A DNA stretch of 25,462 bases. Origin: a virus (Duplodnaviria; Heunggongvirae; Uroviricota; Caudoviricetes). The position numbers are program-made. The stretch lies in the IMG/VR virus record IMGVR_UViG_2563366903_000022; one strand, written 5' to 3'. Of the stretch, positions 15,001 through 21,000 are shown piece by piece (within the stretch, counting starts at the first letter, position 1; each line of letters starts with the position of its first letter).

Positions 15001-18000
15001 TCCTGAAACTGGTACAGGATAATCCAGACAAGGATTACTGGCAGGTATTCACCAATGAGCGACCGGACACCATGCGTGCGATTGCAGAGCGTGTTGTTCC
15101 GGAAACCGGTGAAACCCGTCACGAAGTTGTCGAACGTCCTGTGCCGATGGCAATGATGGCGGATCGCTACTTCACCACCAAAAAGAACGGCAAAACGTAC
15201 TACATCAAACTCCATGATCCGCGCCTGATGCGTGCGATGAAGAATATGGGACCGGAAACCAGTAACGCCGTAATCCGCACGCTGGGGAAAGTTAACCGCT
15301 TCCTGGCAACGGTGAACACGTCGTATAACCCGGAATTCCTGGTCAGTAACTTCATCCGTGACGTGCAGACGGCGGTGATGAACCTGAAGGCGGAGCAGGG
15401 AAGGAGCGACGGTAAACTGAAAGGGCTGGATAACTTATCCGCCCTGGCTGTGGTGAAAGACAGCCGGTCTGCCATGTCTGCCGTATACGCCAGTCTGCGT
15501 GGTAAAACCCTCACGGGCAACGGTGCGCAGTGGCAGAAGGTGTGGAAAGAGTTTGTTGAGGACGGAGGTAAAACCGGCTGGTTTAACATGGGTGACCTTG
15601 AAGGCCAGCAGAAGGAAATGGATCGCCTTGTATCGCTGGCGAAGGGAGGATGGAAAGGCCAGAGTATCGGTGCATGGCATTCGTTCCTGAACCTGGTCGA
15701 GGATGCCAACGGCGCGGTTGAAAACGCTCTGCGTCTTTCTGCCTATAAACACGCCCGTGATGCCGGTTTGTCACGCCAGCAGGCGGCATCTCTTGCCAAA
15801 AACATGACGGTGAACTTTAACCGTCGTGGTGAGCAGGGAGCGCTGATGAACTCGCTGTATATGTTTGCCAACGCCAGCATTCAGGGGACCGCAAACCTGG
15901 TGAGAACGCTCGGACATCTTAATGGCGACGGGCCGTTACCGGAGCGCCTTCGCTGGAAGAATCTCAATGTACCGCAGAAAATCGCGCTTGCAGCTGTGGG
16001 AGCGGGTTATCTGCTTGGCTCGCTTAACCGCAGTGTTGCGGGGGAGGATGATGACGGGGTTAACTGGTATGACAAGGTGCCGTCTCATGTGAAAGAGCGT
16101 AACCTCGTCATTATGAAATCGGTGTTCGGGGGCAAGGCCGGAGAGTACTGGAGTATTCCTCTGCCTTACGGGTACAACGTTTTCTTCCTGCTCGGGCATA
16201 CTGCTGAAGGTGTGGCAGCGGGCGACCTGACTGCTTCACGTGCTGCCGGTAATGTTGTCGGTGGTATCCTGGGGGCATTCAGTCCTGTGGGCAGTGAAAC
16301 GTCGGAAACACTGTCCGGGGCATTGCTGAAAAATGCAGCGCCGACCATTCTGCGTCCGTTTGCGAACCTTGCCATGAATGAAAACTTCATGGGGGCGCAG
16401 ATTTACCAGGAGAACATGCCATTTGGCACACCGAAACCGGACAGCCAGCGGGGCAGACGTTCAACGCCTGAGGCGTACAAGGCGTTTGCATCCTGGCTGA
16501 ATGCGTTCTCAGGTGGCAGCCAGTATCGTCCCGGCGCGGTGGATATCACACCGGAATCGCTGAAATTCTGGATTGACTATATCTCCGGAGGGACAGGGCG
16601 CTTCATTTCCAAAACCACAGATGCGGCGGTGAAATCGCTGAACGGTATTGATATACCGGAGCAGCAGGTGCCCTTCCTGGGGAAAATTTCGGGTGAGGTG
16701 ATGCCGTATGCTGACCAGCAGAAGATGTATGACCGGATGACGGAGGTTGCGCAGTACCACGCAGAGCTGAAGAGTCTGACCGGTGCAGAAAGAACGGCAT
16801 TCATTGACGAGAACAACGGAAAATTGTCGATGAACGGGCTTATGCAGGATACCCGGAAGAGACTGAAGGATTTGCGTAAACAACGTGATGCCATTTACGC
16901 CGACAGTACTCTCAGTCTGGCGCAACAGTCGGCGATGGTGAAATCGGTAGAGCGGGATATGAAAATTGCCGTGGATCGGTTTAACCGCGAGTACAACAAA
17001 AAAGTGGGAGTGGATTAACAGAAATGGCCCCGTACGGAAGTGCGGGGCTGATTAAGAAATAAACACACATTAACCTGTAATAACCGGAGCTATTAACATA
17101 TAGTCAGAAAGAGTATTTCATGTGAGACAGAGAGCCGATTTATGTTTAATGAAGAAAAAGTTGCGTAAATGGCAGCGTATTTGCTGAAAAAACATGGCGG
17201 ATCTATGCGTTTCATTAAGCTGATGTATCTCTCTGACCGCAAAGTAATGGAGTTGTATGGTTTTCCCATTAGTGGTGATCATTATTTCTCTACATGGATA
17301 TCTGATGTAGCGGATCATAAGGTTGAAATGTGGCGTACATTTTCTTCTGTTGATGAGCTGGGGGAGTTATCGCCCGCAGAAATAGAGTCAATGGACATAA
17401 TTTTTGGTCAATATGGAGGTTGGGATGCGTTCAGGCTTTGTGATGAAACTCACAGAATTTGCGGTGAGTGGCGCGATCCGCATGGTTCATCAATTCCAAT
17501 CAGCCTTAAGGATATATTTATTGCTCTTGGAAAGTCGCCAGAAGCAGCAACAGTAATGGCGAATAGCATTTATGCGCAAAATAATCTTGATATATTATTA
17601 GGTGATCTGAGGTAGTCGGGATGATGTTCAGCCCTTATTTGTATTTACCGGGGAGGGAAGATGTTTAATTCCGATTCCCCGGCTCCACAGGCCTAACCTA
17701 ACTTTATGTAACAGTCCATGCAGGGCTGAAATCTGCCTGCTGAAATAACTCCGTTAGCCCGCTAATCTGCTTTAACCTCAGAACTTCATCCTGGTCCATC
17801 CCCAGTTCTGTTCCGATACGTTCATCAGTCCAGCCAAGACGTGAAAGATCTCTGACAATATCAGACATTGAGGTTATCTGGTGTTTCCCCCTGGCTCTGT
17901 TATGTCGGATAGTCGCGGCAATACGTGAGGTTTGTCCCTTTCGGTCTGGATTAATACAGGTTACTGGTAGCCAGCCTTTCAGGCGTTTTCCAGTAACTGT

Positions 18001-21000
18001 TCTTCTACCTAGTAACTGCCTATGAAAACCATCCACCACCAGGTAATGGCTTGTTTCTTCCGAAACAACAATTGGTTGAGTAAAACCGTCTTTTTCCAGA
18101 GATTGTTTCAGTAATTTTTTTTCGCTTGGGGCCATGACATTGGGATTATAATCGTTAGCGACAATTTCATCCGCTTTTACCCACAGCACACAGTCCACTG
18201 GTTCTTGAGCAAAGGGGCTGATCTCATGGAGTACGCAGCGGAGATGGTTCAGGGCCTGTATGGTTTTCTCTTCAGATTGTTCCTGACTGAAGTACTGTCG
18301 AATCATCTTGCTCAGCACCTCCACCTCTGGTGTCACAGAATTCCCCATTCCTTCCTCCTTTCATTCATACGCTGCAGGTAACGTTCATAGTGCCGGGGTT
18401 TGTTGGGGCTGAAGGAGAGCGTTCGGCACCAGAAATCATTCTTTATGAGAGTCTTACAAATACGTCGCCAGGAGGGAACATCCCGGCAGCCCAGATCATT
18501 TTCCTGTTCATCCGGGATATCATCCGGGAATCCCCGGTTCTGATACCAGCGCAGGTAGACTGCTATCTTGTTGCGGTAGTGTTCAGCCGTTCTTTCCGGC
18601 ATTACGTCCAGCAGGAAGAACGCATAGCTGCGCCAGGTATGATGGGATGGTTTTGACATCCGTTTACGCAGGGCAAAATAGGCCCCGCTTTCATTGGCAT
18701 AAAGAGCCCCACTGGCAGCACCAGATACTCGTTCACACATCCGTGCCCAAGTTTCTGGCTCCAGAACATGATAAAGCCATAGTCCCTTACGCTGTTCCGG
18801 GCCAAAAGGCTCACAGACACGCATATTACGTAGAGGAATGCCTGCACGGTACATCAAATCATACAGAGGATTGTAGATTGCACAGGTTTTAGCGTTATAT
18901 ACCCAGATATCGTTGGTTTTCCAGTCATACAGCGGATACATGGTGTAGTAAAAACCTTCAGGTGACGCCGTGGTCCAGGGTTTATCATCTGCATATCTCA
19001 GTTTTCGTTGGGAAACCAGTCCCATAAATCTGTTAAGAGATTCATCCGCGCGGACTCCAGTCAGTATTGCCACGCTACATTGGTTACTTGCGAACCAGGA
19101 AGAAAAAGCTGGGACAAATTCTTCAAAAGTCATGGCGTAGCGGTAAAAGGGGAAATACGCCATATCAGTAATAGCATCTTCCGGTGGCTGTCGAACCCAC
19201 TCTACACCGGGTTCCCAGCATATCCACTCAGGCTGAAACTGCGAGACACCATTTACTGTCGTCAGGGGAAGTGCAACCCAGTAAAAGGTATCTGTTACAT
19301 CTTGGTACATCATCCGCATCTTCTGTATATGATCAATGGTGCATTGATACTGGGCTTCCCAGTCAATGAACAATACAGAAAAACGACGTTTCTTCCTGTA
19401 GGCCACTTCGGCTACAAGATGGAAAAGTACAGTGGAATCTTTACCGCCAGAAAAAGATAAACATACAGAAGAGAATGTTTCAAACAACCATTCAATGCGG
19501 TGAATGGCTGCTGACAAAACATCTTCTCCAGTTCTGATTTTTGTTATAGTTACCGGCATACAATCTGATAAAAATAGCGAGGGTTTGCATTTTACCTAGT
19601 AACGTTATGTAACTATTTTTTTGAATAAAGGCAATGAGATAATGATAAAAAATGTTTATCTAATGTACTGAGCTCTTCTCTTTATTGTATTAACTCTTCG
19701 ATTTCAGCGGCGTTGTCGTTCAGGCATGAAAAAAGGAGCCGAAGCTCCTTTGGTTTCAGAATTCAAATTGTCTTGCCCGCAGGCTTTTCAGCATTGGCAT
19801 GGCCCGCTGGATAACGGAACTTGACATGTCGAGACGTGTTACCTCCCTTAGTAGCGCGTCTCTGTTCTTCGTCACCATGTAGATGGTCTCAAACGCAATG
19901 TCATACAGCTTGTTCGTGTATGAGGAGTTCAGCTCTTTCATTATGGGGTACAGCTGCTTGCTAAGGTCCTGGGCTTTTTCCATCCAGAGTTGCATGTAGC
20001 AAAGGAGGATGATTTCCTCGGCGGTAAATTGTGGCTGTGATTCTGCTTGTACTGGCTGAATGTTGCGAAGTTTCTTTTCGCACTCGATGAAGTATCGGCG
20101 TATCTGGCGGCCTTTTTCGTTACGTTCAACCATCGCAAGCTCTTTGGCTGTGTCGAGGGTGAGGTGATAGTCTTTGCTACGGCGATCGCCTCCTCGACCT
20201 TTGATTTCCCGATTTGGGGAAACCAAAATATAGTCCTGATTTTCAACGAAACCATATTCAGCAATGCGTTCTGTAATCCAAGACGCAAAGCGTTTACCTA
20301 CCCCAAGAAAAGTATGTAAATCACGGGCATTAACGAGAAGAGTGGTTTCGTTGGCGATAGTGCCGTTGAATACGGGGATGAGTTGACTGGTCATGATGAC
20401 CTCCTTGTAAGTTTAGTTAGCTCAACCAGTTAGTAGCTGGTTGGTCGGGTGTCAACTGAGCCTTACAAGAAGCTCTGGGCATATTCCCCTTACGGGTATT
20501 GTATTACGCCTCTCCACCCGACCTTTGTACGGATGTGACTATGCCGCATTACGGGCATAAAAAAGCCGCAAAGCTATCGGGTGCGGATGACCGCTTGTAA
20601 GTTCAGTGCGGTCAGTATGCGATAGCTCAGGCGGATTTGTCAATCTGCGGAAATATTGAGGAACGGGTGGCAGTAAATGCCTCATCCAGAAAATTAACGT
20701 AAATTCACATCGTAAACTTGCGTTAATTATCTGAAATATCTACTTAAATCCTATTAAATTTTTGGGGCACTATTGGGGCAAAATGTGGTTGTTTGGGGCA
20801 TATTTGGGGCAAAAAAGAACGTATAAATAACGGTGTAAAATCGATTTCTTCATGGTCAAAATGAGGTGTAACAGATTGAAAAATATGTGCTCTTGGACGA
20901 TCTTCGGTAATTCTGTGTTTTTAATGCATCATGGTTTCAATATGTCCGTACATGGAATAATAAAGCACTAGTATTCTTGCCTTAACACTCATATCATTGT

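Follow-up and report, generated by a model that had tools for sequence, protein, structure and literature searches.

The 25,462-nucleotide (nt) stretch of Caudoviricetes DNA analysed here (IMG/VR record IMGVR_UViG_2563366903_000022, hereafter the window) carries on its minus strand two overlapping genes, ibrA and ibrB, whose products of 408 and 214 amino acids (aa) exactly match the UniRef sequences of IbrA (Q8KU24_ECOLX) and IbrB (Q8KU23_ECOLX). The window pair is, beyond any serious doubt, IbrAB itself, and is therefore a pair that is already known; a preliminary description of the window had identified it correctly. The pair has been named since 2002, when Sandt, Hopper and Hill, in J Bacteriol 184:3640, are said to have described IbrAB of Escherichia coli ECOR-9 and its activation of eib, and RefSeq annotates its products as 'phosphoadenosine phosphosulfate reductase' (WP_001145450.1) and 'IbrB-like domain-containing protein' (WP_000528463.1). 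We propose that IbrAB may be a two-subunit, nucleic-acid-directed adenylating or modifying enzyme. This mechanism is one that we infer and hold tentatively, somewhat on the low side of an even chance; the joint statement, that the pair is IbrAB and that it works in this manner, comes closer to even while still falling just short of it.

ECOR-9 and the window share the same IbrA and IbrB proteins, the same gene overlap and the same Stx2-phage-like arm with antirepressor genes, the one difference being that the window arm ends at wrbA and not at ynfF. Phage PhiR5_2, whose genes are annotated IbrA/IbrB, is 96.7% identical over the region, and it shares with strains SCU-104 and EC2 the order giant LPD38 gene, Panacea-domain gene, ibrB, ibrA and antirepressor gene ant. 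In SCU-104 and EC2 the ibrAB arm adjoins ynfF, and this ynfF-adjacent island agrees with what we take to be the published map position of IbrAB.

The two genes are arranged as follows, both open reading frames (ORFs) lying where the preliminary description had placed them:

18333 to 19559, minus strand: ibrA, encoding a 408-aa PP-loop protein of the PAPS (phosphoadenosine phosphosulfate)-reductase fold with DUF3440 at its C-terminus.

17704 to 18348, minus strand: ibrB, encoding a 214-aa protein with a ParB/Srx-like N-domain followed by a helix-turn-helix (HTH).

18333 to 18359, minus strand: the ibrA/ibrB junction, with AGGAGG at 18354-18359, the ibrB ATG at 18346-18348 and the ibrA TGA at 18333-18335.

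The genes overlap by 16 nt (ATGGGGAATTCTGTGA), and the Shine-Dalgarno sequence AGGAGG lies 5 nt upstream of the ibrB start codon, a layout that is as expected for translational coupling. Overlaps of 15 or 27 nt between ibrA and ibrB recur in Enterobacterales homologues.

The association of the two genes extends far beyond this prophage. Among 1.84 billion cluster representatives, 1811 IbrA relatives were found at E ≤1e-3, 317 of them under 1e-30. To follow the partner gene we surveyed 160 loci, comprising 80 IMG/VR viral loci whose proteins are 34-54% identical to IbrA and 80 loci from species-representative genomes, the contigs of the latter having been found by a profile built from 10 sequences. 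Both genes are present at 155 of the 160 loci. A co-directional, adjoining ibrB accompanies ibrA at 79 of the 80 viral loci, the contig of the exception ending 170 bp past ibrA, and at 76 of the 80 genome loci. For three of the four genome exceptions the contig ends within ~360 bp past ibrA; in the fourth (L154) ~800 bp remain. The pairing of ibrA with ibrB is thus essentially obligate, far beyond what chance would give. It occurs in both orders, A then B and B then A, and in hosts that include Enterobacterales, Bacillota, Bacteroidota, Actinomycetota, Planctomycetota, candidate phyla and Asgard metagenome-assembled genomes.

Sequence features of IbrA suggest an enzyme that splits ATP. With 61.3 bits for PAPS_reduct and 114.8 bits for DUF3440 the protein exceeds both Pfam gathering thresholds, and its domain score, adenine-nucleotide alpha-hydrolase fold and PP-loop place it in the PF01507 superfamily. 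The SGGKDS motif to which the preliminary description had drawn attention is present:

19434 to 19451, minus strand: the PP-loop SGGKDS, IbrA residues 37-42, an ATP pyrophosphatase/adenylyl-transfer motif.

Across an alignment of 33 IbrA homologues with identities down to 28%, this loop shows no change at G39, K40 and S42 and conservation of 90% or more at S37, G38 and D41. D66/E68, the R170-E173-S174-R177 set and a YDW motif are conserved as well, and a family-specific insert contributes three invariant tryptophans (W112, W115 and W121). The alignment contains no invariant cysteine; where IbrA has C249, in the sequence MRVCEPFG, homologues can carry D, N, A, G or L. A structure search with IbrA returned small-molecule adenylyltransferases and sulfonucleotide reductases as best matches, and those of its neighbours with nucleic-acid substrates included the tRNA enzymes TilS, TtuA, NcsA and ThiI. 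Neither IbrA nor IbrB has a close solved homologue according to sequence searches of the PDB, and the longer IbrA homologues, which are possible fusions, gave no informative additional Pfam domain. Because the PP-loop is kept and no cysteine is invariant, we read IbrA as an adenylating or ATP-splitting enzyme: it looks like an ATP-using adenylyltransferase or ATP pyrophosphatase, and appears unlike either a thiol-dependent sulfonucleotide reductase or an iron-sulfur (Fe-S) sulfurtransferase.

This profile bears directly on the function that the automatic annotation implies, namely that IbrA is a phage-borne CysH-like reductase of PAPS or adenosine phosphosulfate (APS) that boosts host sulfate assimilation. 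Genes of this kind commonly receive such a label in viromes. The annotation itself, together with the PAPS_reduct domain and fold, speaks for such an auxiliary metabolic role. Against it, all CysH and APS-reductase models of NCBIfam score far under their cut-offs (TIGR02057, 31.2 versus 254.2; NF002537, 32.9 versus 154), the catalytic C-terminal cysteine is not conserved, C249 being variable, and the canonical ATP-type PP-loop is intact; moreover, an obligate ParB-like partner and DUF3440 have no role in sulfate assimilation. We consider this explanation extremely improbable. The equivalog models for CysD and DndC are likewise far from being reached by IbrA.

Three other PP-loop proteins help to place the adenylating enzyme that we envisage. 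ATP sulfurylase (CysD/CysN) and eukaryotic FAD synthetase use small-molecule substrates, sulfate and FMN, and differ from IbrA, which has Trp-rich inserts (W112, W115, W121), DUF3440 and a ParB-like partner. NinC of phage lambda (Nin290; PHROG 424), a PAPS-reductase-like PP-loop protein of the nin region, is related to IbrA (hhalign probability 94.8%, E 5e-08); unlike IbrA, which falls in PHROG 2302, it has no DUF3440, and in lambda no ParB-like gene is adjacent to it. The likeness to the nin region extends to environmental IbrAB modules, which adjoin NinG- and ERF-type genes.

IbrB belongs to the ParB/Srx superfamily as judged from its sequence. It matches PHROG 2159, 'ParB-like partition protein', at 4.9e-91. 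Its score with Pfam ParB_N is 18.9 bits, under the gathering threshold of 26.3, and its ParB membership therefore holds at superfamily level only; one homologue in our survey (L010) passes the same threshold with 29.7 bits. A family profile built from 27 diverse homologues matches ParB (4UMK, 1.8e-5), Noc and SbnI in the PDB. Three segments stand out, the first of which had been named in the preliminary description as the core of the protein:

18019 to 18033, minus strand: the DGFHR motif (IbrB residues 106-110), which takes the place of GERR in ParB box II and of GCHR in Srx.

17887 to 17907, minus strand: the RHNRARG motif, IbrB residues 148-154, the putative counterpart of ParB box III ENLQRE.

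17761 to 17835, minus strand: a predicted HTH, IbrB residues ~172-196 (GWTDERIGTELGMDQDEVLRLKQIS), which aligns with the ParB HTH.

Across the 27 homologues D106, G107, H109 and R110 of the first motif are invariant, as are H149, N150, A152, R153 and G154 of the second. Box III of ParB, ENLQRE, serves in nucleotide and Mg binding. Within the HTH, G183, M184, D187, E188, R191 and Q194 are invariant across phyla, and the putative recognition region LGMDxDEVLRLKQI is near-invariant; residues 160-193 also weakly match a PHROG transcriptional-regulator family. In an hhalign comparison IbrB and Bacillus subtilis ParB run collinear between box I and the end of the HTH, with NDYNPN set against PNPYQPR, DGFHR against AGERR, RHNRARG against ENLQRE and one HTH against the other; the alignment is weak, with a probability of 19%, and the ParB sequence in it may be approximate.

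ParB, Noc, KorB and VirB share with IbrB the layout of a ParB N-domain followed by an HTH. They differ from it in having GERRxRA as box II where IbrB has DGFHR, and in possessing a C-terminal dimerisation domain and parS; IbrB stops just after the HTH. A canonical partition ParB was accordingly rejected as an identity for IbrB, given its box II, the missing dimerisation domain, and the lack of a parA gene and of a palindrome. ParB-like proteins also accompany DNA-modifying enzymes. PHROG 498, in which ParB-like domains are fused to phage DNA methyltransferases, matches IbrB at 7.9e-09, and ParB-like partners go with the DNA modifiers Dnd (DndB) and Dpd (DpdB) (PMC12839542). In the DpdA/DpdB pair the ParB-like ATPase DpdB acts as helper of an enzyme that modifies DNA (PMC12839542); that enzyme is a transglycosylase, whereas the enzymatic partner of IbrB is a PP-loop protein.

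The chromosome of E. coli K-12 carries paralogues of both proteins, YbdN and YbdM (b0602/b0601), with 57% (IbrA/YbdN) and 61% (IbrB/YbdM) identity and the same overlapping gene order. Unlike ibrAB, they are part of the core genome, next to citR, and are not prophage-borne. We know of no eib-related phenotype for YbdN/YbdM. The preliminary description had called the biochemistry of such pairs unresolved, in agreement with the literature on IbrA/IbrB, DUF3440 and ybdN/ybdM, where we found no biochemical characterisation; YbdM was still 'completely uncharacterized' in a 2022 paper (PMC8764527). K-12 ybdNM is repressed by CitR, citR itself being an H-NS-regulated repressor gene (PMC9068703). Deletion of citR (ybdO) derepresses ybdN and ybdM, and a large part of the cys regulon for sulfate assimilation stands in the same list of up-regulated genes (PMC9068703, table). 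From this joint behaviour one might take a weak hint that sulfur or adenylyl-sulfate pools are affected by the paralogue.

The pairing of a ParB-like with a PAPS-reductase-like protein had been said, in the preliminary description, to mirror DndB/DndC of phosphorothioation systems. At superfamily level the comparison stands: DndB/DndC likewise consist of a ParB/Srx-superfamily protein and a PAPS-reductase-superfamily PP-loop ATP pyrophosphatase, and their system is DNA-directed. Below that level it does not hold, as the DndC and DndB models both fail. IbrA scores 17.8 bits with the DndC model TIGR03183, versus a cut-off of 290.4, and differs from DndC in lacking Fe-S cysteines and in carrying DUF3440, which DndC does not have; DndC requires a [4Fe-4S] cluster (C280; PMC11662687). 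No DndB or DGQHR model of NCBIfam or PADLOC matches IbrB, whose motif reads DGFHR and not DGQHR, and the NCBIfam scan of IbrB gave only nucleoid_noc, at 22.7 bits versus a cut-off of 315. As had been noted at the outset, the window contains no DndA/D/E-like genes, and a search of the flanks, suggested at the same time, found no dnd-, ssp- or brx-like genes on either side of the pair or in the complete 61.5-kb PhiR5_2; dndA/D/E- or sspA/B/C-type genes are also absent from the recurrent neighbours at the 160 loci.

A reduced Dnd/Ssp-like phosphorothioation system, with IbrA acting as DndC, IbrB as DndB, and IscS and other functions borrowed from the host, could draw on the shared superfamily pairing, on weak PADLOC matches over the PP-loop region (DndC, 4.5e-05; BrxP, 1.6e-07), and on the joint rise of ybdNM and the cys regulon in the citR deletion, itself a weak hint of a sulfur drain (PMC9068703). 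The model scores, the absent partner genes and the cysteines all stand against it. Since no cysteine is conserved, the reaction is therefore taken to be neither Dnd-type phosphorothioation nor sulfate reduction, and we regard the reduced-Dnd explanation as highly improbable. Type 4 BREX was likewise tried and set aside: the BrxP match spans residues 17-96 of IbrA in a model of 779 positions, and no other brx gene is present. PADLOC made no defence-system assignment.

Beyond the two core proteins, many phage loci contain additional parts. A conserved domain of 125-170 aa, here called 'C', with the motifs WEC...GFY and SCEHxLTN...NRxAWLGQA, is found at 53 of the 80 viral loci, fused to the C-terminus of IbrB at 29 of them and encoded by a separate ORF just upstream of ibrA at 24 (for example L033:7552-7974, L019:7615-8013 and the C-terminal 160 aa of L053:970-2115), and at only 3 of the 80 genome loci. 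It has no match in Pfam, PHROG or the PDB, and may be a third subunit of the ibrAB module. In addition, a small GNAT acetyltransferase gene lies between ibrA and ibrB at 15 or more loci (among them L140:9271-9690, L072:2113-2541 and L025:5857-6234); that of L140 scores 27.3 bits with Acetyltransf_1, against a threshold of 20.7. Recurrent phage neighbours are genes for ERF, NinG, DUF6291, SNF2 and DnaB helicases, a single-stranded DNA-binding protein, a C5-methyltransferase and terminase. The phage neighbourhood of ibrAB is a replication or nin-type region.

How might the two proteins work together? PP-loop enzymes, among them TilS, QueC, CysD and FAD synthetase, adenylate their substrates. In the mechanism that we propose, IbrA and IbrB would form one heteromeric enzyme. 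IbrB, a minimal ParB-like protein that keeps the nucleotide-pocket positions (DGFHR, RHNRARG) and the HTH, would bind nucleic acid, most likely DNA and probably in a manner dependent on a nucleoside triphosphate (NTP), and would position IbrA on it. The PP-loop of IbrA would split ATP to AMP and pyrophosphate, adenylating either an atom of the nucleic acid or a group to be attached to it, and a nucleophile would then displace AMP and leave a covalent modification. The reaction would use no conserved cysteine and no Fe-S cluster, and the GNAT or 'C' parts of many phage operons suggest that the chemical modification may proceed in several steps. During the replication of lytic or temperate phages the module could place its mark on their DNA, and in a lysogen it would act in trans by this same activity, activation of eib being a downstream epigenetic-like or anti-silencing effect.

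We favour DNA as the target because the ParB-like partners in question are those of DNA modifiers (DndB, DpdB and the PHROG 498 fusions; PMC12839542), because the phage neighbourhoods are DNA-metabolic, and because the operon-embedded GNAT and 'C' parts suggest multi-step chemistry over pure regulation. An alternative is the modification of a cellular RNA that is itself conserved, such as a tRNA at one of its bases. Here a TilS- or TtcA-like adenylation of tRNA would alter decoding or shield tRNA from anticodon nucleases, and Eib would rise through translation. The presence of TilS, TtuA, NcsA and ThiI among the structural neighbours of IbrA would be explained, and the extreme conservation across phyla of the putative binding surface of IbrB would fit a universal substrate such as tRNA. 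However, the best structural matches of IbrA are not tRNA enzymes, the Pfam scan detected no RNA-binding domain such as THUMP or PUA, and partners that combine a ParB/Srx domain with an HTH are known from DNA-directed systems (PMC12839542) and not from tRNA enzymes. We therefore judge an RNA or tRNA target improbable.

Several observations weigh against the adenylating-enzyme mechanism itself. Most PP-loop enzymes that act on nucleic acids target tRNA, not DNA. Sequence and family context, from which the proposed chemistry is drawn, point to no particular substrate or nucleophile. The structural model of IbrB, with a predicted local distance difference test (pLDDT) score of 46, is too poor for inspection of the nucleotide pocket, and the alignment that relates this pocket to ParB is the low-probability one described above. 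A search for a parS-like palindrome at ibrAB found none, returning one weak inverted repeat of 75%. The window has neither a GNAT nor a 'C' part, nor do the E. coli relatives that were examined, and the presence of these accessory parts elsewhere may thus not bear on the window pair. Finally, the sole experimental phenotype known to us for IbrAB is a regulatory one: ibrA plus ibrB are reported to activate eib expression in trans, at the level of transcription or expression (Sandt et al. 2002, as cited in PMC7649339).

This phenotype is the natural starting point for a different explanation, according to which IbrB is an NTP switch like VirB, KorB or Noc that loads on DNA and relieves H-NS-type silencing of AT-rich prophage genes, for instance eib, and no nucleic acid is modified; IbrA would then be an accessory, serving to load IbrB, to lock it or to supply its nucleotide ligand. 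VirB and KorB are ParB-like, CTP-dependent transcription regulators, and the arrangement of IbrB, a ParB N-domain plus HTH collinear with ParB, resembles theirs. The K-12 paralogues adjoin the H-NS-regulated citR (PMC9068703), and an Eib-like gene lies in the same type of prophage. In the closest genomes this gene, for an EibD-like trimeric autotransporter (L002:1186-2445, L168:424-1668), is on the same prophage arm, ~19 kb upstream of ibrB, and the YadA-C-terminal protein that this arm encodes matches the solved structure of EibD at 4.2e-32; the corresponding position would be about 2 kb left of window base 1. In these close relatives ibrAB and its likely eib target travel together on one prophage.

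An anti-silencing switch would, however, leave the strict need for a catalytically intact PP-loop enzyme unexplained, as it would the GNAT and 'C' parts inside operons. Nor would one expect sequence-specific regulators with differing targets to keep a near-invariant HTH in unrelated phages and hosts, which speaks against diverse promoters as the sites of action; no conserved palindrome or upstream motif was found; and environmental phage modules have genes of replication and recombination as neighbours rather than regulators or adhesins. On balance we think it unlikely that IbrAB acts purely as an anti-silencer. The adenylating-enzyme mechanism can be extended to a broader proposal, to which we give slightly more credence than to the anti-silencer while still considering it doubtful: IbrAB would be the minimal core of a widespread phage system for nucleic-acid hypermodification, with GNAT and 'C' as optional parts, in which a ParB-like, NTP-gated DNA clamp delivers a PP-loop adenylating enzyme that writes a new kind of covalent, non-sulfur mark on DNA, eib activation in lysogens being an epigenetic side effect.

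Pairs resembling ibrAB are common in E. coli, with ibrAB-like DNA present in 1930 of 5426 complete genomes. In 19 of the 1930 the genes are at least 99% identical to ibrAB, and in the others they are ~83-84% identical and lie on genomic islands, for example beside cah and a PerC-family gene in O157:H7 or in an island of extraintestinal pathogenic E. coli. In O157:H7 strain F8797, which has the 83% variant, the gene for the PerC-family regulator (L085:8647-8916) directly follows ibrB. A transcriptome study reports that ibrB and perC are co-induced upon adherence to epithelial cells (PMC7649339).

Expression of ibrAB in the window may start between ibrA and the antirepressor gene that precedes it:

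19560 to 19755, minus strand: the AT-rich spacer of 196 bp 5' of ibrA, read from the sequence.

~19727 to 19750: a candidate terminator hairpin of ant, followed by a T-run; tentative.

The ant hairpin with its T-run and the AT-rich spacer tentatively suggest that the operon's own promoter lies in this spacer. A promoter and terminator consensus scan gave no sigma-70 match there and did not list the ant hairpin either, and comparison of four ibrAB variants revealed no conserved motif in the spacer.

As a whole, the window corresponds to the late (right) arm of a lambdoid prophage of the short-tailed, 933W/Stx2-like kind, in which a tail-tip fibre gene, lom and several unknown genes are followed by the gene for a 2790-aa polyvalent protein. 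In addition to ibrAB, its main landmarks are these:

8646 to 17018, plus strand: the polyvalent protein gene (2790 aa; LPD5, LPD1, MuF_C, LPD38), the last gene of the late arm.

17169 to 17615, plus strand: a Panacea/SocA-like antitoxin-domain gene, convergent with ibrB (Pfam PF13274, 2.4e-09).

19756 to 20394, minus strand: the AntA/P22-type antirepressor gene ant, upstream of ibrA and co-directional with it.

20921 to 20992, minus strand: a 5' fragment of wrbA, containing ILVLYYSMYGHIETM, which marks the right end of the ibrAB prophage.

The ant product matches Pfam AntA at 2.5e-28 and P22_AR_C at 5.3e-07, as well as PHROG 377. The counterpart of the gene at 17169-17615 is annotated in relatives as a Panacea domain protein; the protein has 148 aa in the window and 174 aa in relatives (L002, 20170-20694), the window being short of ~70 bp near the 3' end of the gene, and no obvious cognate toxin gene adjoins it. 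Between lom and the gene that follows, relatives have an annotated Hok/Gef toxin gene (L002, 8225-8365), to which a 428-bp gap at 5013-5439 corresponds in the window.

The wrbA fragment lies ~0.5 kb past ant and ~1.4 kb to the right of the ibrAB pair. From ~20930 rightwards the DNA matches, in other genomes, wrbA plus a different element with a serine recombinase and tail remnants, and the ibrAB prophage therefore ends there. As a moron of two genes, ibrAB sits close to the right-hand end of this 933W/Stx2-like prophage. The second mobile element, at ~20921-24710, comprises a large serine recombinase gene (21044-22687), a Dit-like baseplate gene and a tape-measure remnant; the wrbA site looks occupied by two elements, the second of them apparently degraded. 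The last ~750 bp of the window (~24710-25462) fall outside the stretch matched contiguously by the best genome records (20930-24709), and an ORF at 24959-25462 continues past the window end. Because positions 20400-25462 gave about 79,565 matches in 10,200 records, and because the end lies outside the contiguously matched stretch, an insertion sequence is suggested at the right end of the window.

The interest of IbrAB is that of a common, strictly paired module: in addition to its frequency in E. coli and the K-12 paralogue ybdNM, it occurs in hundreds of phage and bacterial lineages across phyla. The survey adds new context, namely the obligate pairing, the lack of a conserved cysteine, the GNAT and 'C' parts and the placement in nin regions, and this context, parts of which may already have been noted in the comparative-genomics literature, sharpens the hypotheses on IbrAB chemistry. 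Should IbrAB indeed mark DNA or RNA covalently, this would represent a new modification pathway, one that could affect restriction evasion, sequencing artefacts and the control of prophage virulence and adhesin genes in pathogenic E. coli.

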